Below are positions 2,536-64,000 of a stretch of 64,000 nucleotides of DNA, piece by piece (position 1 is the stretch's first letter; each line of letters opens with the position of its first letter). A program made the translations under genes and the position numbers. This stretch comes from Salinivirgaceae bacterium (GTDB taxonomy: Bacteria; Bacteroidota; Bacteroidia; Bacteroidales; SZUA-534). The notes below the pieces were generated by a model. It did not search any database. It was not told the origin of the DNA and worked only from the letters and a program-made list of their open reading frames with translations. The stretch covers positions 19,640 through 83,639 of the forward strand of contig JAFZWI010000002.1 of the NCBI GenBank assembly GCA_017617355.1, in the 5' to 3' direction.

Positions 2536-2608
2536 GAATCAGTAGCTCAGTAGGTAGAGCACATCCCTTTTAAGGATGGGGTCCTGGGTTCGAACCCCAG
2601 CTGGTTCA
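2536..2608 (+). tRNA. tRNA-Lys: tRNA-Lys (anticodon UUU)
   Basis: Hand-folded 73-nt cloverleaf. Acceptor GAATCAG/CTGGTTC (one G-U pair); D arm GCTC-AGTAGGTA-GAGC; anticodon stem CATCC/GGATG with loop CTTTTAA. Variable loop GGGTC; T arm CTGGG-TTCGAAC-CCCAG; discriminator A; no encoded CCA. Confidence 0.9.
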
Positions 2609-2642
2609 CTTTTTTTGTGTCCATACTTTTCCATACAATTTT

Positions 2643-2993
2643 GTAGCGCGCTAAAAATCAACAATTTGCATTGTAGCAAAAAAAGTTCGTAACCCAATGG
2701 GGGCAGGGTTCGCCATCCCGCCAAATGTTGCATAATTCCACAAAATTCCACTATTTTTGCTACTAAAATGTTAAACTTAATAATTGAAAAACAACTATTT
2801 ACAAAATTTATATGGATAACACATTAAATATCAGCATTTTATTTTTTGCTACCGTGCATAATGTTATAAATCAACGAATTAGATTAGCGCCATTTTTTGC
2901 TACAACCCAAAAATCGGCTTTTTACACTTTTGTAGCAGCTTAAAACGCTGAAAAACAGCATTTTGACACTTTTAGGGTGCGTAGCAAAAAAAA
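2643..2993. promoter_or_regulatory. array of putative arm-type recombinase binding sites (TTTTTGCTAC / GTAGCAAAAA)
   Basis: TTTTTGCTAC at 2754, 2844 and 2894. The inverted form GTAGCAAAAA is at 2673 and 2981, and partial GTAGC at 2643 and 2932. All lie in the A/T-rich gap between the tRNA and int. Confidence 0.5.
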
Positions 2994-3040
2994 CAAAGCT
3001 AAATAGTTATAAAACAATATTTTAATCAAAAATCAACATT

Positions 3041-4267
3041 ATGGGCAGACCGAGAATAAACAAAGATGAGAAGGTCGCGCAAAAGGCGCGTTTTGATTTC
3101 ATTCACTCGCGGCGCGGCGATGACAAGCTGGAGCTGCTAATCAATTTCGGCTATTCGACGCGCCGGTATGTGGCGACCAAAATAGAGATTCCCAAGTCGG
3201 CGTGGAACGCCGAAGAACAGTCGGTGGTTAAACAATACCCGAACAGCGACAAGATTAACCTCTATCTGCTGCAACTCAAAAGCAGATACGAGGCCGTGGA
3301 GCTTGACTGTATGACAAGGGGTATTCCCTTCAACCCCGAAGCGCTCAATATGGGGCTGAAAATCGGGAGCGCCGGCGTTGTGGCGTACTGCCGCGAGAAA
3401 ATCGACATCGACGTAAAGCGAGAGCTTTACGCGCCGGGGACGGTAAAGCACTACACGACATTCTGCAACGTGCTGGAGCGATTTGAAAAGCAGATGGGCG
3501 AGCTGCTGACTTTCGACATTCTCAACAAGGATATGCTGATTCAGCTTGACATATTCTACAAGAGCATATACACCAGCTTTGAAACGGTGCGCAAGCAGTT
3601 TACATATCTGCACAAGTTTTGCAAAACGGCCAAAGAGGACGGGCTTTTGACGCACGACCCTTTCGCCGGATTCAAGATTGAAAGAGGCCGCGAAACAAAG
3701 CAGACAATGCGCGACGCGCTGAAAGCCGACGAACTGCGGCGGCTGGAGCAGATAGCCGCCGACGGCTGGCTCGACGATAACACACAGCTTGTTTTAGACC
3801 GCTTCCTGCTGTCGTGCTACACCGGCTTGCGCATATCGGACAACGCCGACTTGCGGCGTACCGACATCACCTACGACGAGGACGGACATCTTGTAATCGA
3901 CCGTATCACGCTGAAAAACAAGATTAGGGTATTGCTGCCGCTGCACTACCTTTTCGACGGCAAGGGCGAGGCCATTGTCAACAAGTATATGGAGCGATAC
4001 AAGCTGAACCAGTACGTGTTTCCGCAGCTGTCCGACCAAAAGACGAACTCAAAGCTGAAGCTGATTGCGGCGGCGGCGCAGATTCGCAACTTGGGGCTGT
4101 CGTTTCACATCGCGCGGCACACTTGCGCAACAATGCTGGCTGAAAAGACCGGCAACCCATATACCATTATGCAGCTGCTCGGTCATTCCGACATCAAAAT
4201 ATCAATGACCTATATACATAACAGCTACGCGACGGTGGTAAACAGCCTCGCCGGTGTCAAGTGGTAG
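3041..4267 (+). CDS. int: tyrosine site-specific recombinase (phage integrase)
   Basis: 408 aa. The C-terminal catalytic pattern is LRISD..., HIARHTCAT (HxxR) and LLGHSDIKISMTYIH (H...Y). The N-terminal SAM-like/arm-binding region is typical of Bacteroidota integrases. Confidence 0.92.
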   Translation: MGRPRINKDEKVAQKARFDFIHSRRGDDKLELLINFGYSTRRYVATKIEIPKSAWNAEEQSVVKQYPNSDKINLYLLQLKSRYEAVELDCMTRGIPFNPEALNMGLKIGSAGVVAYCREKIDIDVKRELYAPGTVKHYTTFCNVLERFEKQMGELLTFDILNKDMLIQLDIFYKSIYTSFETVRKQFTYLHKFCKTAKEDGLLTHDPFAGFKIERGRETKQTMRDALKADELRRLEQIAADGWLDDNTQLVLDRFLLSCYTGLRISDNADLRRTDITYDEDGHLVIDRITLKNKIRVLLPLHYLFDGKGEAIVNKYMERYKLNQYVFPQLSDQKTNSKLKLIAAAAQIRNLGLSFHIARHTCATMLAEKTGNPYTIMQLLGHSDIKISMTYIHNSYATVVNSLAGVKW

Positions 4268-4276
4268 TTGCCAATC

Positions 4277-4310
4277 CTTGCTAATTCTTACCAAATTAGC
4301 AAGAATTTGG
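4277..4310 (+). terminator. hairpin directly after int (possible terminator)
   Basis: 10-bp perfect stem CTTGCTAATT (4277..4286) / AATTAGCAAG (4294..4303) with a 7-nt loop. The following T tract is weak (AATTTGG). Confidence 0.35.
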
Positions 4311-4390
4311 GAATCAACAGTTGGAACACTTGTTTTGGCAATCGCTTGATTATGTTTTTTCATTAGTTATCCATTGGGACAAACTCCTTT

Positions 4391-4782: not shown

Positions 4783-5607
4783 TTAAAGGTTTTGATTTTT
4801 GTAAAACTCTTGTATATACGCCTCTTTTTCGGGAGTGCGCTCGTTAATCATAAAGTAATAGTCTATTTTATTTGCAAAGCCATACGACGGACACACGCGC
4901 TCACATTTGTATTTTAGAAACTCTGCCAGCGTCTTGGTCATATAGTGCGCGATGTAATTGCGGTAGCCGTCAAGAACGGCTTGCGGCTCAAGCAGGCGCA
5001 GCGCGTCGTAGCTTCGGCAGCAAAAATCGCTGTCAATCATAGTTGGTATGATATAAGCCGTAACGTCGTGCAGTTTTTCTTGAAAAGAGTGCGGAGTTAC
5101 GGCTCGCGCCTCACAGCTGCAACGCATTGTCGTTTTGTATAGCTGGCTTAACCATAAGTTGTTTTTAATAACGTGCAGGCGCTCGTACACCGGCACCGAT
5201 TCGTCGCCGACAATAATCTCATCGTCGCCAAACAGCCGCCAGTTCAGTATGACAAAATTTATCCAGCTCGGTACGGGCTGCAAAAACGTTTTTATGTTGC
5301 CCGATTCAAGATGGACAAACTCGTCAACATCGATAAACGAACACCAGTCCGTTTCGCCGGCGTGTCGCAACAACCAATCATCATATACTTGAACATTTGG
5401 AATAGCCGGAAACTCGCGTCCGCGCCAATCTTCTATCACAACGCTATCGCGCAGTTGCGGATTTATGGCCTCGGCAAGCAAGGGGTAGTCGGCATCGTTA
5501 TTATCGTAAATGTATATGCGGTCGTAGCCTATTCCCAAGTGGTAGGCTATCCAGTCGTTAATGTATGCGTTTTCGCGCTTCGCCAATGTGCAAATAGATA
5601 CTATCAT
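4783..5607 (-). CDS. GT-A fold glycosyltransferase (GT92/GT2-like)
   Basis: 274 aa. The N-terminus VSICTLAKRENAYINDWIAYHLGIGYDRIYIYDNN and the DxD-type motif FIDVDEF fit the DUF23/Glyco_transf_92-like pattern. The region looks more AT-rich than the neighbouring fibre genes. Confidence 0.65.
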   Translation of the reverse strand: MIVSICTLAKRENAYINDWIAYHLGIGYDRIYIYDNNDADYPLLAEAINPQLRDSVVIEDWRGREFPAIPNVQVYDDWLLRHAGETDWCSFIDVDEFVHLESGNIKTFLQPVPSWINFVILNWRLFGDDEIIVGDESVPVYERLHVIKNNLWLSQLYKTTMRCSCEARAVTPHSFQEKLHDVTAYIIPTMIDSDFCCRSYDALRLLEPQAVLDGYRNYIAHYMTKTLAEFLKYKCERVCPSYGFANKIDYYFMINERTPEKEAYIQEFYKNQNL

Positions 5608-6046: not shown

Positions 6047-7777
6047 TTAAAGTCCTACGACTTGCTTTAATCTCTCAATTTCACGTTGTTGGGTTGCGAC
6101 AATTTCGCGTAATTGCTCTATACACGAAAGCGCCACGATTGACAATTTTGAATAGTCAACACTTTTATATCCGTTCTCGTCCTCGCTGACGATTTCGGGC
6201 AGCACCTTTTCCACGGCCTGCGCCGACGTGCCGATGTTGGTTCGTCCGTCGCCGTCGTTTTTATATTCAAAACGTTTAAGCGGAATATCGGCCAGCCGGT
6301 CGAGGCCGAATACAAAATCGCTCAAATATTTTTTCAGCCTATCGTCCGATGATTGGTAAAGCCCGACGGCGGTAATGTTCGATGTGCTTTCAAGTGTGCC
6401 GGTTCTAACCCTGCCGTTCAAAATTGCGGCGTAGCCAGTCGGAACATCAATTTGAAGGCCAACGTTGTCATCGCCGCCCGATATTGAAATCGTGAGGCCG
6501 CGCAATTTTGATTTGTATGTGGTTGTCGCGTCAGTACCGCCGTGCGTGTTTCCCAGCTTTATTTCCGCGCCGGTCATTTCTACGGCTGTTGAAGCACCGT
6601 CGGTTTTGCCGTTAATCGTAAGCGGAGCTTTTTTAATGTTGCCGATGTATTTCCAAGTGCTTGATGTGCCGGATACACTGGTGCAAACAAATACCTTGCC
6701 GCTGCTGACATTGTGGTACATATCGCCGGCTGACGGATTGTAATCATAACGGCTGTTGGTTGTATTTACAACGCTTGATGTTGCTGTTGCGCCAACTGTG
6801 TTTGACGTTGTGGCTACGTCCGTGCCAAAGAACCAACGCCCTGCGGAAGCGTCAGCGCCATTTGTGCCGTTTGTGCCATTCGTTCCGTTTGTGCCGTTAG
6901 AGCCAGTCGCGCCGGTGTCGCCTTTAGCTCCCTTGATGTTGCCGATGTAGCCCCAAGTGTTAGCCGCGCTTGCTTTATAAACATTCCAGCTGCTTGTGTT
7001 CAAATAAAAGTCGCCGGCCTTTGAGTTGGTAACGCTGGCCGAAATGCCCGATGTGTTCGTGCCGGTTACGGTCGCGCCGCTAAACCACGTAGCGCCATTT
7101 GTGCCGTTTGTGCCATTCGTTCCGTTTGTGCCGTTAGAGCCAGTCGCGCCAGTGTCGCCTTTAGCTCCCTTGATGTTGCCGATGTAGCCCCAAGTGTTAG
7201 CCGCACTTGCTTTATAAACATTCCAGCTGCTTGTGTTTAAATAAAAGTCGCCGGCTTTTGAGTTGGCAACGCTTACGGTTTGCGACCCCGACGTGTGTGT
7301 TACGGCTGTGCCGCCAAACCACGTAGCGCCGTCAGTGCCGTTTGTGCCGTTAGAGCCAGTTGCGCCGGTATCACCCTTGTCACCTTTCGCACCTTTTAGG
7401 TTATGGAAGGTGAGGACGGTTTTTGGCGCTCCAGTCTGCGAATCGACTGTATTTTCGGGAGTTACCGACGGCGTTCCAACTTGGTCTATATCTTGACTTG
7501 TGCCAATTTCAATCTGCTGAATGGCTGTTTCGCCATCGCTTACCGCCCAGCTCGCAACGCCAGTGTTGCTGATAGCTGTGCATTTATACATTTTACCATC
7601 GGACTGACAATAAACGCGGCTTCCAACAACTATAATACCGTCATTGTCGCCATACGCACACGGCAAGGCGTTTCTTGCGTTTGTGTCCGCAACCACGCAA
7701 TAGCCGCCCTTAATGTTATCCGCGTCAATCAAATGTTTGCTTGCCAGCGACGAGCCTAATTGAAATCCTACATTCAT
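6047..7777 (-). CDS. tail fibre/spike protein with collagen-like repeats and a C-terminal Peptidase_S74 intramolecular chaperone domain
   Basis: 576 aa. G-X-Y runs (GAKGDTGATGSNGTNGTNGTNGTNG) occur three times inside 79-aa tandem units. The C-terminus SSDDRLKKYLSDF...IGTSAQAVEKVLPEIV...YSKLSIVALSCIEQL matches the SDxRxK autoproteolytic chaperone of endosialidase/L-shaped fibre type. Confidence 0.85.
   Translation of the reverse strand: MNVGFQLGSSLASKHLIDADNIKGGYCVVADTNARNALPCAYGDNDGIIVVGSRVYCQSDGKMYKCTAISNTGVASWAVSDGETAIQQIEIGTSQDIDQVGTPSVTPENTVDSQTGAPKTVLTFHNLKGAKGDKGDTGATGSNGTNGTDGATWFGGTAVTHTSGSQTVSVANSKAGDFYLNTSSWNVYKASAANTWGYIGNIKGAKGDTGATGSNGTNGTNGTNGTNGATWFSGATVTGTNTSGISASVTNSKAGDFYLNTSSWNVYKASAANTWGYIGNIKGAKGDTGATGSNGTNGTNGTNGTNGADASAGRWFFGTDVATTSNTVGATATSSVVNTTNSRYDYNPSAGDMYHNVSSGKVFVCTSVSGTSSTWKYIGNIKKAPLTINGKTDGASTAVEMTGAEIKLGNTHGGTDATTTYKSKLRGLTISISGGDDNVGLQIDVPTGYAAILNGRVRTGTLESTSNITAVGLYQSSDDRLKKYLSDFVFGLDRLADIPLKRFEYKNDGDGRTNIGTSAQAVEKVLPEIVSEDENGYKSVDYSKLSIVALSCIEQLREIVATQQREIERLKQVVGL
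6855..7400. repeat. in-frame tandem repeat, 237-bp period (2 full copies + 1 partial)
   Basis: GCGCCATTTGTGCC... at 6855 recurs at 7092 with near identity over about 180 bp, and a diverged third copy lies at about 7326..7400. It encodes the collagen-like + SKAGDFYLNTSSWNVYKASAANTWGYIGNIK unit. Confidence 0.9.
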
Positions 7778-7789
7778 AACTACTTGTAT

Positions 7790-8884
7790 TTATGCGATTT
7801 TATAATTCTTTATTTCTGCCGTACCTTGTTTGTCCGACATAAGGCAATAGTATGTTGCAACCAGCCCGTTAAGCATTGTGAATTGCACGGTTGTTTTGGT
7901 TGTTCGGGTAATATTCACCCATTGCCCAACGAAAAACTCTTGAATGTTTGCTTTACTGCTGTCAGTGGTTAGGAAGAAAATATAATCATTAACATTGTTG
8001 CTAATTGTAACGCCGTCATTTTCGTTGATTGTTTTTTCTTTGGTCATTGACGCATCGTATTGTGTCGGCGCAGAATTAGATGATTGTGCGCCGCAATAAA
8101 TGTACTTTTTATTAACCACAATAGCCGACGATTGACTTGTGTCGGAAACGGTGTAGTTGGCTTTTGTGGCCTTTACCTTGTATGCACCAGCCGATTGGTT
8201 GTCGCTTACGGTTATCGTCTTTGAGTTTTCGGTTAATTCAGTCCAGTTTGTGCCGCCGTCAACGCTATATTCGGTTATCGCGTCATTTGTGGCCGACTTA
8301 CTAATGATTACGGTGGCCGTGGCCGCGTATTGGTCGCTATTATCTACCGAAAGAGCCGGCTGCGCCACTTTTGGGGTTATGACAATAGTGTATGGCTGTG
8401 TGGCCTCGTCGCTTGAAACGCCGTTCTTTATGGCTTTCACCTTTACATATTTTGTCAGCGCGGAGTTGTCAGCGTCGGTGCTAAAACCGCTGGCTATTGA
8501 AAATTTGCCGTTTGATATTTGTGTGTATTCCACGTTAGCAAGCGCCGCAGCGGTGTCGGCAATCTTGTAGTAGGCGGTTGCACCCGAATCAATGCCCGAT
8601 ACCTCAATTACCGCGCTGCCAGTAACAACGCTTTTTGCTAATTGTGCAGCGGCTATCGTCGGGGTGTTCGGCTTCGTAAGTTTTGTAAGCGCCGCAAAGT
8701 AGCGGTCGTTGCCAGCCGATACAACCAACTGTTTGTTGTCGATGTCGATTGTGTAGGTGTCGGCTGGCTCGATGTTGCCGTTGCTTCCGATTTTAAGAAT
8801 CTTGCCCGGCTCGGCGTTAGCCACTGTTGCGTTCAGCAGCTTGTTGCCATTCAAGTTTATGTCGGTTTTAAAGTCCATATTCAA
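7790..8884 (-). CDS. fibre/receptor-binding-type protein with two Ig-like (chitobiase C-terminal-like) modules
   Basis: 364 aa. The N-terminus MNMDFKTDINLNGNKLLNATVA is fibre-like. Two modules have the pattern ...YYKIAD...VKVKAIKNGVSSD and ...EYSVDGGTNW...YKVKATKANYTVSD. Confidence 0.6.
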   Translation of the reverse strand: MNMDFKTDINLNGNKLLNATVANAEPGKILKIGSNGNIEPADTYTIDIDNKQLVVSAGNDRYFAALTKLTKPNTPTIAAAQLAKSVVTGSAVIEVSGIDSGATAYYKIADTAAALANVEYTQISNGKFSIASGFSTDADNSALTKYVKVKAIKNGVSSDEATQPYTIVITPKVAQPALSVDNSDQYAATATVIISKSATNDAITEYSVDGGTNWTELTENSKTITVSDNQSAGAYKVKATKANYTVSDTSQSSAIVVNKKYIYCGAQSSNSAPTQYDASMTKEKTINENDGVTISNNVNDYIFFLTTDSSKANIQEFFVGQWVNITRTTKTTVQFTMLNGLVATYYCLMSDKQGTAEIKNYKIA

Positions 8885-8889
8885 ATGAT

Positions 8890-11800
8890 TTAAGGTTCAT
8901 CAAAAGGTTCGTCCATTGGCTCGTCCCACGGCTCTTCCCACGGGTCGGGTTCGTCGGGGTTAGGCAGGTCGGGGTCTTCCCAAGTCGGTTCAGTCCAATC
9001 GGGGTTAGGCTCGCCGCAGCGTGAGCAGAATTGTCCATCGCCCCAATCGTGGCCGTAAGCCGCGCACTCATCAAAGTCGGGATTAGGCTCACCACAACGA
9101 CGGCAAAATTCAGTTGTGCTATCCCAATCGTGGCCGTAAGCCGCGCACTCATCAAAGTCGGGATTAGGCTCACCACAACGACGGCAAAATTCAGTTGTGC
9201 TATCCCAATCGTGGCCGTAATCTTCGCACTCGTTATAGCCGGGGTCGCTCGCTCCACAGCTTGTGCATACTCCGTGTTCAAAGCTGTGCGCGTGTTCGTG
9301 GAATATTTGTTCATATTGCGCTGTAAACTCCACATTATTGGCCGGCATTGTGCTTGGAATAGCTGGCGACCAGCCAGTGAAGCGCCATTCAGTATAACCT
9401 TCGGGCGTTGATTCGTCGCCGTCGAAAATATCGTTGAGAGTTGGCGGCGTAATTGCCTCGCCTACGGCTATTTCAATTTCTTCGGGGTCAGCCGGTTCGC
9501 CCGACGAACCGAGATAGTTGAATGTCGCGGTGTAAACTTGTCGCTGTTCTTCGACGGCCACTATTGCCGCACCCATAATACTGATTGTCAGTGGATTTTC
9601 GGGCGTTACAACATTGTTGCCGTTCCAGCTTACGGTTATTTCGCCGTTATTATTCGCGATATTCATACCAACAGCCGCGCCGTTCAAATAACAAACCACA
9701 ATCGGAGCTGTGCCGCACTTATGCGTAGCAGCGGCAATAGTTACGGAGTTACCCGAAAGATAGTTTTTGCAAACGTAGATGTAATGGCCGATGTTGGCGA
9801 GCTTTGTTTTTTCCTCGTTAGTATAGTCGTTTGTTGATAGCCCTTTATTGTCAACTTTGTCAACCTTGTTGCCGATTGCCGTATTCATTGCAGCCGCGCT
9901 ATCCGCGTGTTCAGTTATCCAGTCGGCAATTTCTCTCAGTGTATCAAGGGAAGCCGGAGCGTTTGCCACCACCTCTGCAATAGCGTCGGAAACTGTCTTT
10001 TTTATTGAACCAGCCGAGCCGTCAGTTTTATTTAACAATTCAATAGCGGCTTCGTTAGCGTCGATTTTGCCTTTGTATGTGCTGACATATTCGTCAATAG
10101 CCTCTTTTCGGGTATTTGTAAGGTTGTTGTCGGTGTGAACATACTTATTATCCGATACGAGATTTTGGTCGTTGATAAGCTGGCTGGCGCGGTTAATCAC
10201 AAAGTCAATGTCAGCGCCAGTAAAAGTGCCATCGCCAAGATTCTCAAAGAATGTGCCGCTGACGGCCTCGTACAAGCCAACAACACCGTCGCTCAAACGT
10301 TGTGCAGGAGCAAAGTGCGCTTGTAGTGTTGTGCCGTCATACACTTTGAACGAATAGAGCCTAACCGAAGCAAATTGAGCCACACCGCCGTCGTTGTTGC
10401 TAGCGAATAAAACCAATGTGTTTAGCGTTTCAAAATCGCCAGTATCGGGCATTTCGGCGGTTGTGCCGTCGGTATAGGTAAATATGCGGTTTTGATATTT
10501 CAACACCAATCGTTTGTTAGCTACAAGTTTCGGGTCTATTGCGGTTTTGTTTGTGTTTACTGCAAATTCGCCGCCGGGCTTTGTCGCATATATAGAGATA
10601 GAAAATCTTGCGGCTGCGGAGTTTTTACCACCAGCATTTAAAATGACTGGCTGGCCGTTTGCGGTTTTAGGCGCGTGAGGTGTGCTAAAGTCTATTTCAA
10701 AACCGGTGTTTTGGTTAGGTTTTATGTTGGTGTCAATATACTGGCTATAATCCTTATTGCTTTCAATGTAGGCAAGTTGTTTATAGCCGTTCATTGCTAC
10801 GGGCTTCACCTTTTGCGCATAAAACGCATCATTTTCAAACGCGCTAACTTTCGTCGGCGTGTCGGTTAAATCGTTGTAGCTGCCCGAATTGGCTATCGGG
10901 TTAAGTTTCTTAACTTTGTTAAAGTCCTCATTATTCAAAAGATTGCCGTTTTGGTAGCCGTTGAGCCATTGCCACGCCGAGCCGTTCCATTGAATAAGCG
11001 AACCGGCAGGGTAGATAACTTGCTTGTCAACAAGGCAATCAAGCGACGCTTTAATGCGTCCGTGCGCGTCGAGCAAGGGATTGCGGTTGGGCGAGCCAAG
11101 AATGAACGTATCGACCCACACGTCCGAATGTAAATCTTCAAGCGTATAGCCGTTCCACCCCTTTGCTGTATTTAGTGCTTTTTCTTCATCAAGATAAATA
11201 TTCATTTGTTCCTCGCCGGCAATCGAAAATTGCGACGGAGCAATGCGGAATCGCTTGATAGACGGCTTATATTGAACGTTACCGCTGGCGAAAATCACAT
11301 ATTTATCCTCACCAACCTTAAAAGCGCCCAAATCGTCGGCTTGCGCGTCCCTTACAAAACGAACTGACGATGAGAGAAAAGCCCACCAATCGTCGTGAAA
11401 ATTAACCGAATTAAAATAAACGGTAGCTCCGTTACGGTTTATCTCGGCGTTTCTATAATGATTGTCAACAAATAACAGCCGCCAAACCAGCCGGTAAAAA
11501 TTAGAATATGTATCATCGTCCGTTTCCTCCGTGCCGCGTGGGTTAATATCCATAAACGCATACGCGGTATAAGGCTGCAAAGCAAATGTCGGAGCGCCGC
11601 CTACTTGGTTGTCGTTGTTTGTTCTAACGACCCTATAAGTCGGGCACCACGGCAAAAATATTGCGCCGTTCTGCTCCATAATAGCCCACTCTGCTTCGGT
11701 AAATGTTACAAGGTCGTAATATTCAGCCGACGGCGTAAAAAGTCTATCCGGGTCGGTATCGCTGTATTTCAGCCCCTCTGCGCTCCAGTCCCAGCCGTCC

Positions 11801-12258: not shown

Positions 12259-12269
12259 ATCGTTTTATT

Positions 12270-14080: not shown

Positions 14081-14083
14081 AGG

Positions 14084-15009: not shown

Positions 15010-15067
15010 AACACTATATTTTTCTCTTTCGTTCTCAATCTTTAGTCTTTGACAAGGGCTATGCACA

Positions 15068-15108
15068 ATAAAAAACCGGCAAAGTCCGTGGTTTTGGATT
15101 TTGCCGGT
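15068..15108 (-). terminator. intrinsic terminator after the GNAT module
   Basis: On the minus strand, ACCGGCAAA (15108..15100) pairs with TTTGCCGGT (15083..15075) and is followed by TTTTTTATT. Confidence 0.65.
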
Positions 15109-15133
15109 TTATGGTTGGTTATGTCGAATCGTG

Positions 15134-51303: not shown

Positions 51304-51325
51304 CAACAATCTAAAAATCAACAAT

Positions 51326-53554: not shown

Positions 53555-53610
53555 CGGCATTGCAAACATAGCAAATAATTCAATATGAAATCATTAAATA
53601 TCAATAAAAA

Positions 53611-56600: not shown

Positions 56601-57717
56601 CGGCAGCGAAGCTGACAAAAACGAGGCCGAGGCTCTTGTAAAGGAAAACTACCGCCAAATGTGGGCTGACGCAGAGGCCAAAATCGAGCGAAAGCGAAGC
56701 AAGGCGCGGTTTATTGAGTTCTTCTATGCAGGACGCGCTTGCATTGTCGATGGCGACACCAACACAAGGGCGATTTGTTTGGGTGCGGAGATTGGCAACA
56801 AGGCCAAAAACAAATACGCTCCATCAAATATTTCAATATCGTTTGCCGTGGCAAGCAGCGTTAAATCGCTGGAGTACAACATTGCCGACAAAGACACACG
56901 CGAGCTGGAAGCCATTATGGGCTTGTCGGCTGGCATTAGCGGCGGCTACTACGACACCACCGACTACGGCCAAAAGTATCTTGAAAACTGGCCGCAATAC
57001 TGCAAAGAGGCAACCAGCGACACCGAGCTTCGGGTAATCATTGTGGGCAACATTCTGCGCGGCTACAAGAGCGCACCCGAACACTCAAAACTCATTTCGT
57101 TCACCACTCACGACGGCAACGTGCTGAAAGGTCTGCTTGTGCCGAAACAAGCCTTTGACGACGATAAAGGCAACAGCACAACAACCAAGCTGCTTATGAC
57201 AAAATACTCCGTGCTGAAATTCAAACCGGTTATGGAGCGAATGTTCGGCAATTACGGTGAGAAGCAAACAGTCAACCTCACACGCGGTATGAAGCTGGAT
57301 ATTGAGGGCGGCTCATTCACTCTGCGCTGTACGGTGCAAGCCACATTCAAAAAGCTGGAAAAACTGCAAGACTGGCTCGACATCAGCCCCGACGGACGCG
57401 GTTTTGTTTCAAAGAGCGACAACTGGCAAATCCGTTTCTACGACCGCGACCGATTCGACGCTGTTTGTGAATTGCTTGAAAAATACCAATTCCAAGTTGA
57501 ATTGCAGCCTATTGAGGCCGAGCGCTATTTCGGAAAGCAGACGCACACGCTCAAACAAGGCAACTGGAAACCGCTGAAAACCGACCCAGCCAACATTCCG
57601 GCCACCGGCGAGAACGGCAGCGCCCAATACAACAACGGCAAACGGACATTGCAGCTTGCCAAAGCAAAGGAAAAGGCGCGACAACTGTTGAAATACGCAC
57701 AGCGATACACACGATAA
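53611..57717 (+). CDS. strawberry-notch-type SF2 helicase (DarB helicase-like)
   Basis: 1368 aa with GDQTGIGKGR (motif I, Sno-type), IFDESHNISG (DExH), INASGATGASAHA and RGRINRTGQ (motif VI). The C-terminus ends with KRTLQLAKAKEKARQLLKYAQRY. Confidence 0.8.
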   Translation: MKLIEIQEQFFRLKNRNGVFFCTEAETDACLNVKAVHYIQADSKMRLPQDWQNARTMTLRGDDLQNIVPMGGGLGMAYQPASKIRKLDTQTPDSMGNDIHSALAKLTKAVGGDVTDFVCERLQWSREEIEERLFAEQVDAVALIIYNFEARGQAMIVGDQTGIGKGRVASSIIRYAIVHNLIPVYCTENAGLFSDNYRDLCDIGCADLNPFIINSSTSGTTNACITTLDENDENVVVHRPITNKKAKEAIFRSGKLPAGYDYVLTTYSQLKNAYKKTKDGTEEGSDISKYYFLLDLAPNAVFIFDESHNISGSKAVSEEWWNPDAPMTMGGSNQFYCFNELCKKSKYAVFLSATFAKRPENLVVYAGRTCIIEAGLKDVELIQAISDGGEALQEIISSDIVGEGQMIRRESIYKNIKVNYIYLDKTGEKEFGTPDLEKQHRSMSDYVTDIINEINKFEQDYVQPIIDNMNSNDWGDRTRKTSEKTGAKHTPLFSKLFNIVNQLLFSIKAEAVADHAIRRLNEGKKVVIGLSSTMEAFVKTLLDEDDDDDKDGLKGLLGIDYEKGEISCDFALVLDKALDNTLKYTTDGEGGYHVKDAIDVSELSPDGQDEYLRLKNRIAAASSGISISPIDIIVQKIEAAVNPETGEHWRVTEVTGRKHYIRFTNKQGTRGVIEPRKKLTRNIAFSQFQNNQSDVLIINASGATGASAHATTKNTNLRPEQVKPRVMIIAQTELDVNKEVQKRGRINRTGQIKTLPPSYDYLISAIPAEKRLMMMLQKKLKSLDANSTSNQKQSTTVIDVPDFFNKYGNRIAYDYLIENPLINAKLNDAAKAPEKEDGKADVPGDFLKKVSGYVPLLTCEEQEDFYNTILDNYLKYIDNLKKKGEYDLEVEAMDLDAELIGELKPLVGASAGESKFADAAYQGTYRCKVLRKPYSQGEVTAMLRNYCGNSDGKTIAKTLADDFRKYYTDELEADRLAMKEAGLKAIEDARKSIAKKGGSEADKNEAEALVKENYRQMWADAEAKIERKRSKARFIEFFYAGRACIVDGDTNTRAICLGAEIGNKAKNKYAPSNISISFAVASSVKSLEYNIADKDTRELEAIMGLSAGISGGYYDTTDYGQKYLENWPQYCKEATSDTELRVIIVGNILRGYKSAPEHSKLISFTTHDGNVLKGLLVPKQAFDDDKGNSTTTKLLMTKYSVLKFKPVMERMFGNYGEKQTVNLTRGMKLDIEGGSFTLRCTVQATFKKLEKLQDWLDISPDGRGFVSKSDNWQIRFYDRDRFDAVCELLEKYQFQVELQPIEAERYFGKQTHTLKQGNWKPLKTDPANIPATGENGSAQYNNGKRTLQLAKAKEKARQLLKYAQRYTR

Positions 57718-57739
57718 TCGAACCTAAATACTTAATACA

Positions 57740-59602
57740 ATGATTACAAAACAAAATCTAAAAAGCGAATTTGAAAACTACAAACAGTTTTTAAAGAACG
57801 ATGAAATGCGCCAAAAGGTGCAGGAAGCTATCGAGATAAGCGAGTTCTACGGCGAGGACACCGACATAACACGCGCCGTTGACGCTATTTGCGAAATGGT
57901 GAACCGCTTTATCGACAAGGCCGACAAGTTTAAGCCCACAACGGCGAAAACACCGGCTGCAAAAAAGACCGAAAAGCGCAAGACGCTGGCCGACTATAAG
58001 TTTGCAAACAAATTTATGTGCGAGAGGCAGAAGCCGGTTGTGCGCGAGGGCTGGAGCGAATTGGAAAGCACCATTGCGCGGCTCGACAAGCAGCTGGCCG
58101 AAATGCCGAAGCTCTACAAACAAGAAAAGTTGGGCAAAAAGGCTATTGTGTACGCTCACTATTTCTTTGGCTCGACCGACATTTTTGTTACCGAGGCCGA
58201 CGATGAGCTGATGTTCGGTTACACAATTTTGAACGGCGACTGTCAAAGCAGCGAGTACGGCAACCAGTCGATTGAGGAAATAACCAACAGCAAGTATTGT
58301 GAGCTTGATTTCTATTGGGATAACAAGACACTGGAGCAAGCCCTATACGACTGCCACCCCGACTATTTCCCCGAACCTAAAACCGATGAACCGACCGAAA
58401 CCGACGAGGCCAAAGCGCGGCGCATACGTATTGCCGAGGCCGAGGCCGAAGCCGCCCTTGCCCTGCTGGAGCTTGTCAACCTTTCGGGCGTTGATGTGGC
58501 CGAAAGACCGCGAACAACCGACCTATTCGGCAATGAGCTGGAGCGCGACCGCTGGCAGAAACGCTGGGACGCACGGCGCAAAAAATACATTTACACCGAC
58601 AACGACGGCGAAGAATGGTACAAGAACGAGCGCGGCCACTATTGCCTGCTTAATGGCAACGATAGCGAGGATATACGCGACCACGCCGTAAACATTTTGC
58701 GCAACGAATTTCCGCAAGCGAAATACCGCGACGAGATTGAAGAATTTGTCGAAACAAGAGATGAGGACGAATTAAATGAGGACGATATAATTGACGATTT
58801 TATCGGCTGGCTTGGCGACGATATTGTTTATTTCCTTTGGGATAGATTTCCCGACTATCAAGACGAAGCCGACGAGTTCATTAACTCCGGCCATTGGGAC
58901 GATAACGTGAGCCGTTACGAAAACTTAAAAGCCTTTAAAAAGTGGCTCGATGACGAAATAGGCGAAACCGTAGGACACGGAAAGTTGTTTGATATTGAGG
59001 AACTGACCGACACCACTGGCCGCGTTACCCCTCTTTATAATATCGACAATAAAAATGATTATTTCAACCGCGAGGACTTGTCGTTTGTTATGAGGGAGCT
59101 GGGAGATTATCTGCCCAAACACAGCAAACACCTTGAGCGCGTTTGGATAGACGAAAACGACACCTACCGATTTGAGTTTGGCGAGGGTGCTTATACGGAA
59201 AACGCACCTGCCGACAAAAAGTGGTATATAAACGCCTTTAGAGCTATACAAGAGCGATTCCCAAGCGTATCGGACAGCTTTATTGAGGAATTTGTAGCCG
59301 ACGGCTGGGATAACACCGCCGAACTCTACGACAATTTGAAAGCCTTTAAAGAGTGGCTTGATGATAAAACCGGCAACACCGACGGCGGCGAGCTGTTTGA
59401 AGTTGGCTGGGAAGATTACGGCGCACAAGAGCGTGGCGTGTTAAGGCCGCTTTACACTATTAACGACCAATGGGGTGAGGACTACTCATTTGCAGAGCAA
59501 TGGCTGCGCGACACACTGGCCGTTGACAACCTTGCAATCGACCGTATGTGGATAAATGAAACCGACGGAACTTACGGATTCTTAACAAAATATGCGAAAT
59601 AA
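57740..59602 (+). CDS. DUF2958-like N-domain protein with a triplicated acidic module
   Basis: AIVYAHYFFGSTDIFVTEADDELMFGYTILNG...EYGNQSIEEI is DUF2958-like. It also has the linker RIRIAEAEAEAALALLEL and three copies of FP...EF[VI]...W[DG]...Y[ED]NLKAFK.WLDD. Confidence 0.6.
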   Translation: MITKQNLKSEFENYKQFLKNDEMRQKVQEAIEISEFYGEDTDITRAVDAICEMVNRFIDKADKFKPTTAKTPAAKKTEKRKTLADYKFANKFMCERQKPVVREGWSELESTIARLDKQLAEMPKLYKQEKLGKKAIVYAHYFFGSTDIFVTEADDELMFGYTILNGDCQSSEYGNQSIEEITNSKYCELDFYWDNKTLEQALYDCHPDYFPEPKTDEPTETDEAKARRIRIAEAEAEAALALLELVNLSGVDVAERPRTTDLFGNELERDRWQKRWDARRKKYIYTDNDGEEWYKNERGHYCLLNGNDSEDIRDHAVNILRNEFPQAKYRDEIEEFVETRDEDELNEDDIIDDFIGWLGDDIVYFLWDRFPDYQDEADEFINSGHWDDNVSRYENLKAFKKWLDDEIGETVGHGKLFDIEELTDTTGRVTPLYNIDNKNDYFNREDLSFVMRELGDYLPKHSKHLERVWIDENDTYRFEFGEGAYTENAPADKKWYINAFRAIQERFPSVSDSFIEEFVADGWDNTAELYDNLKAFKEWLDDKTGNTDGGELFEVGWEDYGAQERGVLRPLYTINDQWGEDYSFAEQWLRDTLAVDNLAIDRMWINETDGTYGFLTKYAK

Positions 59603-59633
59603 CTTATTTACAAACCTTTAAATTAAATTTAAA

Positions 59634-60725
59634 ATGAAACTACAAGGAAAAACATTGGCAGAGGACATCAAGAAAGTGCAACTGCCAGCCGAACTGCAAA
59701 ACTTTTACAACGACCACATTGCAAAGAATGTGGACTTGTACGGCGAAGCGCCGACCGTTACCAAACTGATTGACGCTTGGCTTGAAAAGGCCAACGCCTA
59801 TCTTGAAGCAAACGCCCCGAAAGCCGAGCCGAAGAAAGAAGAACCAAAGGCCGAGCCAAAAAAGGACACCGAACACGTAAAGGTGGTAGCTCCCAAAAAG
59901 CCGCAACCAAAGGCCGAGCCTAAAAAAGAAGAGCCGAAAGCAGAGCCAAAGGCAGAGCCGAAAGCAGAGCCTAAAAAGGCCGGAAAAAAATCGGGTAAGA
60001 AAGTGCCTGCCGCTTTATTCAAGACCGGCGCGTGGGTGATTGACAACAACAGCGAAAAGGCTGGCGTTATCAGCGAGAAACTGCGCTACGACGATGAGCG
60101 CGGCTGCTGGCTCTATCATATCGAATATGTCGGCTCAAAGGAGCAATCGCTTGTAGCCGAGTGCGACCTTGCACGAACACGCGCACCGCGCACCGTAGCC
60201 ACCACTGGCGAACTTGTGCCGGAGCTGTCGGCTGAAATCAAGATTATCAAGCGTTACATCGCATTGGACGGCAAAAAGTTGAGCAAGTTGGGCAACGAGC
60301 CGCGCCTTGCGCTTGCAGCCTTGCAGAAGATGATTATCAACAAGCAGATTCGCAAGACCAGCAAGTATGCCAAGTATATCAACGATATGCAGGACAGCCT
60401 CATTAAGCTTGTCAACAGCCGTGCAAAGGACGCTGAAATAACAATCAACCACATCGACGAACTCCGCAAGATTGTCGCCAAGCAGAACATCAGCGAAATC
60501 TCAAACATATCGCGAGCTTTCGTCGCCCTTATCGGCAAAGACAACAAGCAGAAAGAGGCCAAATCGCTCTACGAAAAGTTGTTAAAGTACAATTTCAAAG
60601 GCGACGATTCAGCCGAGGCCGCAACGATGAAAAAGGCGCTGAAAGCCTACATCGACGGCGAGAACGAAACCGTTTACGCCACAGCGCGTGAGCTGCAAGG
60701 TATTTTCGGCCTTGCCGGTATTTAG
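59634..60725 (+). CDS. K/E/P-rich protein with an SH3-like module
   Basis: 363 aa with PKAEPKKEEPKAEPKK repeats. FKTGAWVIDNNSEKAGVISEKLRYDDERGCWLYHIEYVG; the C-terminus is ARELQGIFGLAGI. Confidence 0.6.
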   Translation: MKLQGKTLAEDIKKVQLPAELQNFYNDHIAKNVDLYGEAPTVTKLIDAWLEKANAYLEANAPKAEPKKEEPKAEPKKDTEHVKVVAPKKPQPKAEPKKEEPKAEPKAEPKAEPKKAGKKSGKKVPAALFKTGAWVIDNNSEKAGVISEKLRYDDERGCWLYHIEYVGSKEQSLVAECDLARTRAPRTVATTGELVPELSAEIKIIKRYIALDGKKLSKLGNEPRLALAALQKMIINKQIRKTSKYAKYINDMQDSLIKLVNSRAKDAEITINHIDELRKIVAKQNISEISNISRAFVALIGKDNKQKEAKSLYEKLLKYNFKGDDSAEAATMKKALKAYIDGENETVYATARELQGIFGLAGI

Positions 60726-60781
60726 TTAATAACCGAGTGCAGGGGGCGTTTCGGCGCTCTCTGCATTTTTTAAAACAACGA

Positions 60782-62173
60782 ATGATGAACAACAAACAAA
60801 CGGCCTTGTTTGGCATTGACGACCGTCCGCAACCGAAATACAAGGTCGGGCAAATGGTTCGCGTATCGTCGTGGGGGCAATACGATTTTGCTTACATAAA
60901 GTCGGTTAAATGGTGGAATTTGTTTGATACCTACAAATACGAACTGACAGCCTTTCACGGCGGCGATTACCACGAAAAGAAAGAATACGACATTAGGCCA
61001 ATTGGTAGTTTTGATTTGAAATACGATGAAGAAAAGGCATATACAATCAACCCGCCCGAATGTGAGGTGGGCGACAAAATTTTCGCAAAGAAAGTTAATC
61101 GGACATACACGGTAAGAGACATTAACCTTTATGGCGTTGACCACAAATACAAGTACAACAAACGCGGACTACGTGTTGTGTCAAAATCAACAGCGTCCTA
61201 CATATACCGTTTGGAAGAAACTGATTCGCCGGTATGGAGTGGTGAATTTAAAGTGCTTCCCAAAGAATCTCCCGACAGCGACAAATCCAAACGCATACGC
61301 ATTGCCGAGGCCGAAGCAGAGGCCGCGCTTGCGCTGCTGGAGTTAGTGAAGATTGGTAATGAGCCGAAGCGCGGTGATGTTTACACGCTGCCCAAAAAGT
61401 TTGAAAAACCCGACGCTTGGTTAAGCGCAAGCGACAAGGATAGATACGATTTTTATTCAGTCGCCGATGTTGTCAGCAACGGCAATATCATTGTTATTGA
61501 TGAGCAAACATATAAAAGCGAATGGTATTCTGCTGACGAATTTAAACGCGCTGGCTTCAAATTTCACCACCACCAACCCGATTACGGAAAGGTTGGCGGC
61601 ATAAGCGGAATCGAAAGAAAAAATGTCGAAATTCACCGCCGGAGCAAACACGGACAAATGGGCGAGATTGACAACTTTGAAGAACGGCACGCGCTGTATC
61701 TTAAACTGCTGAACGACAGCAACTATTATGATGTGATGTTCAAACCCGAAAACGGCGGTTTGAAAGCTGTGCATTATGGGCATAACTTTGACAAAGAAAA
61801 AGGTCATTACGAAAAAGAAGTGATGAGATATGCTTATCAAAATGGTTATTGCGTCATATTAGAAAATGAGCAAGGAAAAAATATCGGCGAGAACTACACG
61901 GAAGGGCTTTGGAATGAAGATGTATTTGAGTTAGCTACTTGCGAAAACGCAAATAGTAACAACAATAACATTGTCAATGGTCTAAAGCATTGCGCGTCAA
62001 AAGACGATACAAAAACAGCAATTTTATATTTCTATAAAGGCGTTTTTATCGAAGCCGATGTTGATAGAGCAATAAGGCGTTATAATGGGCTAAAAAACAC
62101 GCTAACCTATTATAAGGCGTTTACTGCCATTTATATAGTTGATAAGTGGGGTAATATTTATAAGATGAGATAA
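60782..62173 (+). CDS. two SH3-like modules + AEAEA linker + AT-rich C-terminal domain of unknown function (effector candidate)
   Basis: Start at MMNNKQTALFG. It has YKVGQMVRVSSWGQYDFAYIKSV and CEVGDKIFAKKVNRTYTVRDI, then RIRIAEAEAEAALALLEL. The C-terminal region of about 270 aa has no recognised motif. Confidence 0.6.
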   Translation: MMNNKQTALFGIDDRPQPKYKVGQMVRVSSWGQYDFAYIKSVKWWNLFDTYKYELTAFHGGDYHEKKEYDIRPIGSFDLKYDEEKAYTINPPECEVGDKIFAKKVNRTYTVRDINLYGVDHKYKYNKRGLRVVSKSTASYIYRLEETDSPVWSGEFKVLPKESPDSDKSKRIRIAEAEAEAALALLELVKIGNEPKRGDVYTLPKKFEKPDAWLSASDKDRYDFYSVADVVSNGNIIVIDEQTYKSEWYSADEFKRAGFKFHHHQPDYGKVGGISGIERKNVEIHRRSKHGQMGEIDNFEERHALYLKLLNDSNYYDVMFKPENGGLKAVHYGHNFDKEKGHYEKEVMRYAYQNGYCVILENEQGKNIGENYTEGLWNEDVFELATCENANSNNNNIVNGLKHCASKDDTKTAILYFYKGVFIEADVDRAIRRYNGLKNTLTYYKAFTAIYIVDKWGNIYKMR

Positions 62174-62225
62174 AAAAAGGTATGGGAGGCTCCACCGAAA
62201 GTGGTACACCCCCCACAACGCAAAT

Positions 62226-63095
62226 ATGAAAATAATATTTGAAACCGCAAAACAAAATCGGAAAAAAATGATACTCGACAAATTCAACCCCAAATTCAAC
62301 CCGACACCGGCGCAGAAACGCGCATATCGGGCGGAAATGAACAAATACATTCGCACCGCGCACCCAATTCAGCCAATCAACGGCTTGGACGGTTTTGAGC
62401 CGCGCCACAACGAGCCAGCCGAGCCGCAGCCAGTCAAGCGCAAGTTGCAGAAAAGCGACCAAATGAATAGTATGGACTTTATGCAGGAAAAGTTTGAAAT
62501 CATACCGCTTACTGGCCGGTGGAAGAAGCTAATCGGCTATCCTCAATCGGACAGCAAGATTATGTTTTATGGCAAGCCCGGAAACGGGAAAAGCACGCTG
62601 GCGCTCCAGTTTGCCGGTTACACCTCGCGGACGCTGGGCAGCAAAACGCTCTACGTTACCAGTGAGGAACCGTTCTCGTACACGTTGCAAGAGAAATTAA
62701 AGAGGCTGGGCGTAGCTAACCCTAATTTGACAATTACCGGCGAATTTCCTGCCGATGTCAGCAAATACAAGTATATCTTCATTGATTCGGTTAATAATTG
62801 CGGAATGAAACCCGAAGATGTAAGGAATTTGCCGCCCGACCATTTTTACGTGTATGTTTTTCAAACCACCAAAAGCGGTGCGTTCCGTGGCTCACAAGAG
62901 TATTTGCACGATGTTGACGCGGAAATAAAAGTCGAGGCAATGAGAGCCGTGGCTGGCAAGAATCGTTTTGGCGGCTACGAGGAAATTGAGGTGTTGCCGC
63001 AGCGCAACGAGCCGTCAGCCGCGAAGCCGAAGCCAAAATCGAAACGCGCCAAAGGCCGCGAACTACTGGCGCAGACGCTGGCAGGGTTGAAATAA
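62226..63095 (+). CDS. RecA/KaiC-superfamily ATPase
   Basis: Walker A YGKPGNGKSTLALQFAG and Walker B-like YIFIDSVN. The N-terminal extension is basic and contains PINGLDGFEP. Confidence 0.65.
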   Translation: MKIIFETAKQNRKKMILDKFNPKFNPTPAQKRAYRAEMNKYIRTAHPIQPINGLDGFEPRHNEPAEPQPVKRKLQKSDQMNSMDFMQEKFEIIPLTGRWKKLIGYPQSDSKIMFYGKPGNGKSTLALQFAGYTSRTLGSKTLYVTSEEPFSYTLQEKLKRLGVANPNLTITGEFPADVSKYKYIFIDSVNNCGMKPEDVRNLPPDHFYVYVFQTTKSGAFRGSQEYLHDVDAEIKVEAMRAVAGKNRFGGYEEIEVLPQRNEPSAAKPKPKSKRAKGRELLAQTLAGLK

Positions 63096-63150
63096 GAAGC
63101 GGCAATTAAATTTTTATTACCTTTGCCGCTGAATTTTAAAACACTACACT

Positions 63151-63315
63151 ATGATAACCGCAGATTTTTTTAGCGACACGCCTGCAATATCGGGCAAGGA
63201 CGCAGAAAGGTTTTTAAAGGCAATGGAAGCCCCCAAGCCGCTACCGAAAGAGCAACTGGCGGAAATGCGTCGTGCGTACCAAAATTTTTTATCGAGAAGA
63301 GTTGTAAAAAAGTGA
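63151..63315 (+). CDS. small ORF (54 aa), antitoxin candidate for the second GNAT
   Basis: Not in the track. Hand-translated: MITADFFSDTPAISGKDAERFLKAMEAPKPLPKEQLAEMRRAYQNFLSRRVVKK. It ends 3 nt before the GNAT ATG and resembles the small ORF at 15646..15801. Confidence 0.55.
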   Translation: MITADFFSDTPAISGKDAERFLKAMEAPKPLPKEQLAEMRRAYQNFLSRRVVKK

Positions 63316-63318
63316 TTT

Positions 63319-63894
63319 ATGGTAGGGTCTATTGACGATTTCGATTGGCGTTGGGATATTTTGAATGAGAATATTTCAGTTGATGATTTTGTGTGTGAAA
63401 AACACCACGAATTTGAAGATTTCCTCAAAAATGCGGCTCTACTATACCAAGAAGAACGATTGGCTATTACGTATGTGATTCTTGTTGGCAACAAACTGAT
63501 AGCGTACTACTCGCTTGCAACCGACAAGGTTGTGATGAATGACAGCGATAAAAATCTTTGGAAGCGGCTATCGAAGAAAATACCTTTTGACAAAAGGCGC
63601 AGAGGGTACCCTGCATTAAAGCTATGCCAATTAGCGGTTGATGATAATTATGCACATAATGGTTTTGGAAAGCAAATAATAACACAAGTTATGCTTTCCG
63701 CTTCGGACTTTAAAGTAGGTTGTCGATTTATAACTGTTGACGCATTACCCGAAGCCGAAGATTTTTATAAGAAAATGGGCTTTACGCGGCTATCCGGCAC
63801 ACCTAATCCGAAAAACGACACTATCCCAATGTATTTTGATTTGGGCAGAATTGAGGCGCAGCCCGAAAACCAAAACGAGGAAACCAATCAATGA
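63319..63894 (+). CDS. GNAT-family acetyltransferase, TacT/AtaT-like toxin candidate (paralogue of 15134..15655)
   Basis: 191 aa with YPALKLCQLAVDDNYAHNGFGKQII...CRFITVDALPEAEDFYKKMGFTRL...DTIPMYFDL. Confidence 0.7.
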   Translation: MVGSIDDFDWRWDILNENISVDDFVCEKHHEFEDFLKNAALLYQEERLAITYVILVGNKLIAYYSLATDKVVMNDSDKNLWKRLSKKIPFDKRRRGYPALKLCQLAVDDNYAHNGFGKQIITQVMLSASDFKVGCRFITVDALPEAEDFYKKMGFTRLSGTPNPKNDTIPMYFDLGRIEAQPENQNEETNQ

Positions 63895-64000
63895 TTTCCT
63901 CACTTTGTTTACTTTCTCTTTCGGTTATTCTTTCGTTTCTTCCTGCGTTTGTCGGCTGCTTTGCTTTTGGCGTTTGCCCGACCACCAAACATTTTGCCGA

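Follow-up and report, generated by a model that had tools for sequence, protein, structure and literature searches.

The DNA analyzed here, hereafter the window, comprises positions 19640-83639 (64 kb) of one contig from a 157-contig metagenome-assembled genome (MAG) of a gut Salinivirgaceae (Bacteroidales) bacterium. It holds all but the right end of a complete 68.3-kb prophage, which is a discrete insertion in the 3' end of a tRNA-Lys gene with a tyrosine integrase adjoining. Its genes include a 367-aa open reading frame (ORF) that encodes a predicted double jelly-roll (DJR) major capsid protein (MCP). An earlier note on this DNA had proposed a prophage of at least 61 kb that starts at tRNA-Lys and an integrase, with host genes to the left. 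ARAGORN and Pfam bear out this starting point, and host genes do occupy the left side of the tRNA gene; the proposed size is true as a minimum, and with both ends now placed the actual length is 68.3 kb.

The attachment core comprises the last 14 nt of the tRNA, CCCAGCTGGTTCAC. The second copy of the tRNA 3' end that the earlier note had suggested seeking was found as an exact 14-nt repeat, 6849-6862 nt past the window end, on a contig that extends 7.8 kb past the window and carries phage-type content beyond the window end. Only two copies of the core are found in the insertion, both of them intact, and there is one integrase. A signal-anchored M15 peptidase gene adjoins attR on the inside, and a host DUF3109 gene lies outside it. 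In the congener G003, an uninterrupted tRNA-Lys gene is followed directly by a hairpin-plus-T-run and the 5' sequence of DUF3109; in the prophage-bearing genome, this same terminator and DUF3109 5' sequence stand after the 14-nt repeat. The repeat 6.85 kb past the window and the empty site in G003 thus define an element of 68.3 kb (2596 to 70862). The same prophage was also found, in the same context, on an independent 185-kb scaffold. When an empty site was sought from the DUF3109 side, four congeners had no tRNA in the 5 kb upstream of that gene, and a search for attR in relatives found no repeat of at least 14 nt of the tRNA-Ser or tRNA-Pro region within 60 kb. Between the tRNA-Lys terminator and the full DUF3109 gene, G003 (C5:228000-237600) has a short copy of the 5' end of DUF3109 and then an 8.6-kb stretch with ORFs of 783 aa and 1834 aa, so that the same spot seems to be an insertion hot spot. 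A second DUF3109 paralogue (76% identity) lies on another contig of the MAG (G000:C54:10988-11557). The host's assignment to Salinivirgaceae follows from named members of the DUF3109 cluster.

The element is densely coding and bounded on both sides. The minus strand carries nearly all genes between 4.5 and 34.9 kb, and the plus strand those from 35.2 kb to the window end. To identify virion genes, all ORFs of at least 200 aa and a selection of smaller ones were compared by hmmscan with Pfam-A and/or PHROGs, many short early-arm ORFs lying outside the scan. No match was found to terminase, portal, HK97-type capsid, prohead protease, tail tube, sheath or baseplate families. Neither database assigned a tape measure, and weak tape-measure matches were confined to the 368-aa coiled-coil protein (E 0.007-0.009). 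With Terminase_6N as query, all six frames of the entire MAG gave nothing above the cut-off. Every stop-to-stop frame of at least 50 aa in the element was then scanned for the Walker A motif [AG]xxxxGK[ST], which gave four matches. Two are convincing P-loops, in a DnaC/IstB-like loader (41580-42392) and in a 289-aa ATPase (62226-63095), and no unassigned ORF of at least 300 aa in the element has the motif. A helicase is the only other P-loop protein of the element. The 6.85 kb between the window end and attR encode a 161-aa protein with four transmembrane (TM) segments, a basic 113-aa protein, two proteins of 730 aa and 780 aa without portal or terminase features, and the M15 peptidase.

These searches confirm that the element has no recognizable terminase, portal or HK97-type capsid gene, as the earlier note had stated for the late arm, and no standard large terminase (TerL), portal or MCP gene was identified among the ORFs in question or just outside the window. 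The sequence up to attR refutes one explanation offered at that point, which placed the head and packaging genes to the right of the window: reading on to the contig end located attR 6.85 kb past the window, and none of the intervening genes encodes a terminase, portal or capsid protein. The other, a very divergent virion module such as that of a membrane-containing particle with fibers, is supported by the predicted DJR protein, the conserved module in which it lies, and two homologs of virion proteins from Salisaeta icosahedral phage 1 (hereafter SSIP-1). Two counts required correction: the late arm measures approximately 30 kb (4.5-34.9 kb) rather than 28 kb, and the minus-strand ORFs of at least 120 aa between 20317 and 32293 number 11 rather than roughly 14. 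Their description as membrane-anchored, low-complexity, coiled-coil or small β-rich proteins proved correct on inspection of their sequences and a TM scan.

The 367-aa protein has no match in Pfam or PHROGs, and it retrieved nothing by tblastn from 50,697 phage records or, as a single sequence, from IMG/VR. A search of a 5.8-billion-protein set yielded 21 homologs. AlphaFold2 (AF2) models were built for two proteins, the 367-aa protein (from an alignment of 22 sequences) and a neighboring 122-aa protein. The 367-aa model (pLDDT 84.3, pTM 0.79) features an 8-9-stranded sandwich (residues 1-130), a helical/hairpin insertion of approximately 110 residues, and a second sandwich (residues 245-365). 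A Foldseek search of the PDB matched this model with probabilities of 0.95-0.99 to the MCPs of Singapore grouper iridovirus (SGIV), PBCV-1 (Vp54), STIV, FLiP, PM2 (P2) and phiCjT23, with vaccinia D13 and the mavirus MCP ranking lower. Matches in BFVD included a tectivirus GC1 protein, a Megaviridae MCP (0.99), a chlorovirus MCP and a medusavirus MCP. The predicted model therefore shows the capsid fold that characterizes DJR-capsid viruses (pLDDT 84, probability 0.95-0.99 to six or more DJR MCP families), and we predict with high confidence that the 367-aa protein is a double jelly-roll.

An exhaustive profile search extended the MCP family to 81 cluster representatives (50% identity) of 230-830 aa. 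The length variation falls almost wholly within the inter-barrel insertion, both barrels being kept, and short members align as two stretches that correspond to the two barrels without the insertion. By analogy, the insertion appears to vary as the towers of DJR capsid proteins do. No sequence similarity between the two barrels, and hence no internal duplication, was detectable by hhalign, and profiles of the MCP family and of the adjacent 196-aa family found nothing meaningful among PDB sequences. In some relatives (L049, L051, L053, L055, L057-L059) tblastn matched the first barrel only. The MCP profile recovered a single related provirus from IMG/VR (G424, 57.9 kb), and the MCP was absent from 400 other sampled genomes of the order; the lineage is rare.

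The MCP gene lies within a conserved block with which the late arm opens, ordered transglutaminase-fold, giant TM, SH3b-TM, 2-TM, 196-aa, 367-aa, 122-aa, 225-aa and 142-aa. Bacteroidales MAGs from the guts of sheep, horse, reindeer, yak and human contain seven core genes, present at 15-18 loci. The block transglutaminase-fold/giant/(SH3b)/(2-TM)/196/367/122/225/142 is collinear in three metagenomic contigs (L011, L030, L031), and its order is also kept in 15 GTDB genomes, all of them Bacteroidales MAGs (Salinivirgaceae, Marinilabiliaceae, Paludibacteraceae and unclassified). Between relatives, identity of the core genes is 24-87%. Where 60 kb were read, in four relatives, the late genes all point the same way in a single 22-25-kb string, which begins with the transglutaminase-fold gene, continues with the capsid block and variable fibers, and ends with methyltransferase, helicase and ATPase genes. 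The latter genes, a polyvalent module, are the tail of the late operon in these relatives.

Upstream of the capsid genes, the TM scan detected anchors in four module proteins: the transglutaminase-fold protein, the giant protein, the SH3b protein and the 2-TM protein. A Cys-His-Asp triad (C279/H310/D325) is invariant in 17/17 members of the transglutaminase-fold family. Homologs of the giant protein range from 445 to 1151 aa across 16 loci. From the listed TTG start its gene would share 92 nt with the gene upstream, and the true start is probably the ATG at 31257 (residue 33), which yields a protein of 1126 aa and lies 5 nt past the stop of the transglutaminase-fold gene. Downstream of the MCP gene, the AF2 model of the 122-aa protein (pLDDT 88.8) has eight strands and forms a single jelly-roll; its viral Foldseek matches comprise the SPV1 capsid chain 6oj0_Z (probability 0.98) and IBDV VP2. 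By size and position this protein would suit the role of penton, without specificity, and we regard it as a candidate. All features are listed in Table 1.

Table 1. Features of the prophage by window position (the numbering of attR is continued 6849-6862 nt past the window end)
Position	Strand	Feature	Basis
2536..2609	+	tRNA-Lys(UUU)	ARAGORN; sole tRNA found in window
2596-2609		attL core, last 14 nt of tRNA-Lys, CCCAGCTGGTTCAC	
3041..4267	+	Tyrosine integrase, Bacteroidota type, 408 aa	Pfam Phage_integrase 3e-18, Phage_int_SAM_5, Arm-DNA-bind_5
4783..5607	-	Family-2 glycosyltransferase, 274 aa; last late-arm gene	Pfam Glyco_tranf_2_4 6.6e-15
6047..13688	-	Four fiber/spike genes: 576 aa (collagen + S74 chaperone), 364 aa, 1122 aa, 472 aa (collagen-like)	Pfam Collagen, Peptidase_S74; PHROGs tail-fiber families
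13703..17396	-	Small accessory genes: 125-aa paralogue of 4501-4770, DUF6549 TM protein, TM proteins, GNAT	Pfam DUF6549, TM scan; kept in relatives
17330..21468	-	Two further fiber-like genes: 992 aa (Phage_fiber_2, CBM_5_12) and 383 aa (N-terminal FNPFTGKLD)	Pfam, sequence
21485..22591	-	368-aa coiled-coil protein, candidate scaffold or cement	Coiled-coil Pfam matches; kept in 9-13 relatives
22617..23715	-	142-aa and 225-aa β-rich core virion-module proteins	Kept in 15/18 related loci; no family match
23719..24087	-	122-aa single jelly-roll, candidate penton (vertex) protein	AF2; kept in 15 loci
24089..25192	-	367-aa predicted DJR MCP	AF2, Foldseek PDB, BFVD; family of 81 representatives
25324..25914	-	196-aa core protein directly upstream of MCP, candidate second or minor capsid protein	17 homologs, mean column identity 52%
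25970..26524	-	184-aa protein with two TM segments	TM scan; family profile weakly matches SSIP-1 structural gp44, E 0.0045
26545..27873	-	442-aa protein: SH3b domain, Lys/Ala-rich region, C-terminal TM anchor	Pfam SH3_3, TM scan
27877..31353	-	Giant 1126-1158-aa repeat-rich protein with C-terminal TM anchor; candidate membrane-associated tape-measure or delivery protein	Sequence, TM scan
31262..32293	-	343-aa membrane-anchored transglutaminase-fold (Cys-His-Asp) protein; first late-arm gene	Pfam Transglut_core; SSIP-1 gp34 homolog
34326..34640	-	Cro/CI-type helix-turn-helix repressor candidate, divergent control region	Pfam HTH_3 9e-11
35221..48988	+	Early arm: small ORFs, DUF6291 replication-organizer-like protein (38754-39737), DnaC/IstB-like loader (41580-42392)	Pfam
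49366..62173	+	Split DarB-like module: 645 aa, 742 aa (PBECR3 nuclease-like end), 1368-aa Strawberry-notch-type helicase, then 620, 363, 478 aa	Pfam, PHROGs, sequences
62226..63095	+	289-aa RadA/KaiC-like P-loop ATPase, candidate packaging motor	Pfam KaiC, AAA_24, AAA_25
63319..63894	+	GNAT acetyltransferase, 191 aa	Pfam, PHROGs
70849-70862		attR, exact second copy of CCCAGCTGGTTCAC	

Fiber-like proteins number six in total, with collagen, S74 chaperone, Phage_fiber_2 and CBM_5_12 domains. Two paralogous small proteins of 89 aa (4501-4770) and 125 aa (13703-14080) share the pattern SPxVVET...YVG.C.P.CKGYG.K.WLIK and are kept in eight related loci, each time directly after fiber genes. They may be fiber assembly or attachment factors.

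An all-against-all phmmer comparison of the element with SSIP-1 identified exactly two proteins in common, and both SSIP-1 counterparts (gp34 and gp40) are marked as structural proteins in its GenBank record. The transglutaminase-fold protein is homologous to gp34 (phmmer 9e-12, family profile 4e-17), both of which match Transglut_core, and the 289-aa ATPase is homologous to gp40 (tblastn 2e-5, phmmer 2.4e-7), with the same Pfam families. The latter is listed as a predicted packaging ATPase (PMC4124505). SSIP-1 is a tail-less phage with an internal membrane, a T=49 capsid and a 44-kb genome (PMC6260650, PMC6356626, PMC4958249), and is reported to use two single-barrel MCPs (PMC6356626, PMC4958249). 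Both genomes are large among membrane-containing phages, both place a small TM gene just upstream of small β-rich capsid genes, and both encode an integrase and an endolysin, along with a polyvalent protein of the methyltransferase type. In SSIP-1 the last of these is gp43, a 2319-aa ParB_N and methyltransferase protein that is a virion component, whereas in our element it is split over several genes. The two also differ in their capsids, since the single protein of the element is predicted to be a fused double jelly-roll and its 196/367/122/225/142-aa set has no detectable similarity to gp45-gp48. When the capsid-module proteins were compared with gp44-gp48, gp1 and gp41 by hmmsearch, hhalign and BLASTP, the 2-TM family gave a marginal match to gp44 (E 0.0045), and nothing else was found. 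Finally, the genome of the element is approximately 55% larger and carries many collagen/S74 fibers, and its host is an anaerobic gut bacterium where that of SSIP-1 is a halophile.

The 289-aa ATPase is present in 7/7 genomes that carry the MCP. By tblastn against all phage records, its matches were tailed Bacteroides phages and SSIP-1 gp40. An assignment to the FtsK-HerA type was considered and rejected, as PDB and Pfam comparisons place the protein with RadA, KaiC and AAA_24/25. The ATPase gene lies at the end of the polyvalent module, which resembles DarB of phage P1 and the 'polyvalent proteins' that Iyer et al. (2017) reportedly described from phages and conjugative elements. Proteins of this type are packaged with the virion and enter the cell by injection, where they oppose host restriction. 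Like them, the module features an SNF2/Strawberry-notch helicase and a PBECR nuclease-like domain (Pfam). It differs in being split into ORFs with one common amphipathic helix motif, in a virus without a tailed-phage head. The 645-aa module protein has no match to a methyltransferase family in Pfam or PHROGs. The helix motif, ETDEAKARRIRIAEAEAEAALALLELV, is found, within 51041-61347, in the 620-aa and 478-aa module proteins on the plus strand, and also in the 730-aa and 780-aa right-end proteins on the other strand (65194-69725, with the numbering continued). It may be a common address for loading cargo proteins into the particle. In provirus G424 (55323-56989), a 363-like protein is followed by an HExxH (HETQH) zincin-like protein in place of the ATPase, another swap within the polyvalent module.

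Taken together, the lack of tailed-phage head and packaging genes, the predicted DJR capsid protein and the membrane proteins suggest that the element is a temperate, tail-less, internal-membrane icosahedral double-stranded DNA virus of an undescribed lineage, a reading to which we assign a probability of roughly 75%. Several observations weigh against it. TM-scores between the 367-aa model and DJR capsid proteins are modest (0.31-0.44), as is expected where a fold is held in common but sequence similarity is absent and the insertion is large. By E-value, three non-capsid double-sandwich proteins head the Foldseek matches (probability 0.23-0.72, TM-score 0.11-0.16). Non-capsid matches mostly have low probabilities, the exceptions being reelin (0.72), HDT4 chains (0.85) and cellular DJR-like glycosidases (0.75-0.85). 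The best matches of the 122-aa model are generic jelly-rolls (furin P domain, GOLD), which rank above known pentons, and the strongly conserved 196-aa core protein is without a PDB or Pfam match. The capsid proteins have no sequence or profile similarity to SSIP-1 gp45-gp48, and collagen/S74 fiber genes are typical of tailed phages.

Packaging, by an inferred motor, is the weakest step of this reading. No FtsK_SpoIIIE-type match, and no FtsK-HerA/A32/P9-type ATPase for packaging, was found in the element. Tailed Bacteroides phages, e.g. Hankyphage, likewise have members of the candidate ATPase's family in their early regions, and the related provirus G424 lacks the ATPase, which weakens the case for a core gene of universal occurrence. 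A protein of 450-510 aa in seven related genomes has a homolog of the element's 363-aa protein as its N-terminal half and the ATPase as its C-terminal half, with one of the seven having the ATPase as a separate adjacent gene; in the element itself, the 478-aa gene (60737-62173) separates the 363-aa gene (59634-60725) from the ATPase gene. More generally, the case is built on prediction throughout.

Three other explanations were weighed. The element could be a particle-less integrative element, for example a surface-fiber, adhesion or defense island, in which the DJR protein is of a cellular, carbohydrate-active or carbohydrate-binding type and the membrane proteins are envelope components. Cellular DJR proteins do exist (PMC8812541), and the DJR-like glycosidases among the Foldseek matches, the glycosyltransferase, CBM_5_12 and SH3b domains and the want of a canonical packaging ATPase all fit such an island. 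We nevertheless consider it unlikely, since capsid DJR matches rank above enzyme matches and the SSIP-1 homologs are virion proteins. The frame is moreover that of a prophage (integrase at a tRNA, Cro/CI repressor, divergent arms, replication genes and signal-anchored endolysin), the block accompanies phage fiber genes and the DarB-like module in all relatives, and IMG/VR classes one relative as a provirus.

A second possibility is that the same tail-less virus is defective or helper-dependent, a cryptic prophage or satellite whose packaging motor was lost or never owned. This would account for the missing FtsK-HerA ATPase and for a sole candidate ATPase that is tied to the polyvalent module and absent from one relative. 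However, no frame of the conserved module is interrupted, and constraint on the module is evident: the transglutaminase triad is invariant, and core genes at 24-87% identity keep their order. Both att cores are intact, and the same gene set recurs in several Bacteroidales families. We rate this possibility slightly below that of a particle-less island.

The least probable explanation, a tailed phage (Caudoviricetes) whose terminase, portal and HK97 genes have diverged past profile recognition and whose DJR protein serves as a baseplate, decoration or receptor-binding protein, could draw on the six fiber-like genes with their collagen, S74, Phage_fiber_2 and PHROGs tail-fiber matches, on the RadA-like ATPase family of tailed Bacteroides phages and on some low-probability BFVD matches of the 367-aa model to tail proteins, but it fails because a densely coding element bounded on both sides has no P-loop terminase candidate (unassigned ORFs of at least 300 aa lack the Walker A motif that is indispensable to a large terminase), no tape-measure, tube, sheath or portal match in Pfam/PHROGs, homology-grade structural matches of the 367-aa protein to capsid DJR proteins, and two proteins homologous to virion proteins of a tail-less virus.

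For a tail-less membrane virus, the gene content suggests the following cycle. Trimers of the 367-aa protein would make up pseudo-hexameric capsomers, enclosing a vesicle of host-derived membrane in which the TM proteins would be embedded, with the 122-aa jelly-roll or another small β protein forming the pentons, and the six fiber-like proteins may sit on the vertices as receptor-binding spikes. The genome would enter by way of a special vertex, pumped by the gp40-like ATPase. The split DarB-like methyltransferase/helicase proteins would be packed in the particle, as SSIP-1 gp43 is, and delivered with the DNA, while the Cys-His-Asp enzyme and SH3b proteins would open the cell wall on entry. 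The HTH_3 repressor in the divergent region presumably holds the prophage silent, and lysis could be effected by the right-end signal-anchored M15 peptidase together with the multi-TM proteins.

This arrangement resembles that of the known prokaryotic DJR viruses, i.e. Tectiviridae (PRD1, Bam35, GC1), Corticoviridae (PM2), Autolykiviridae, Turriviridae (STIV) and Finnlakeviridae (FLiP, phiCjT23). They share the fold predicted for the MCP of the element (Foldseek 0.95-0.97 to STIV, FLiP, PM2 and phiCjT23), a small jelly-roll gene that adjoins the MCP gene, and membrane proteins in the same operon. The element is also temperate with an integrase, as are many PM2-group proviruses. In contrast, prokaryotic DJR virus genomes measure 7-18 kb (Yutin et al. 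2018, PMC5894146), so that the 68-kb element is approximately four times larger. An FtsK-HerA packaging ATPase, typical of those viruses, is absent from the element, and its MCP has no sequence similarity to theirs and features an inter-barrel insertion of approximately 110 aa. Full-text searches of the literature found no description of large DJR proviruses of Bacteroidales.

More tentatively, and at somewhat less than even odds, we propose that the element and its relatives in gut and rumen Bacteroidales constitute an undescribed family-level lineage of tail-less membrane DJR viruses. At 68 kb theirs would be by far the largest genome known among prokaryotic viruses with this fold; a RadA/KaiC-like ATPase would replace the FtsK-HerA motor for capsid filling, and the particles would bear collagen-like fibers and a split anti-restriction cargo addressed by one amphipathic helix. 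With SSIP-1, such a lineage would link single- and double-barrel capsid viruses in one lineage of gene content. The overall architecture is known; what sets the element apart is a new capsid sequence family, an unusual genome size, a non-canonical ATPase and a heavy load of fibers and cargo.

DJR bacterial viruses are nearly invisible to the annotation pipelines applied here. As Pfam-A and PHROGs do not recognize this capsid family, such prophages go uncalled or are mislabeled as tailed. If the proposal is true, it adds a capsid family (81 clusters at 50% identity) that is invisible to both databases, and it provides the first relatives for the orphan phage SSIP-1. It would also be a naturally occurring system in which to ask if an ATPase outside the FtsK type can package DNA into a membrane-lined capsid, and would mean that the DJR architecture scales to mid-size viral genomes in bacteria, as it does in eukaryotic giant viruses.

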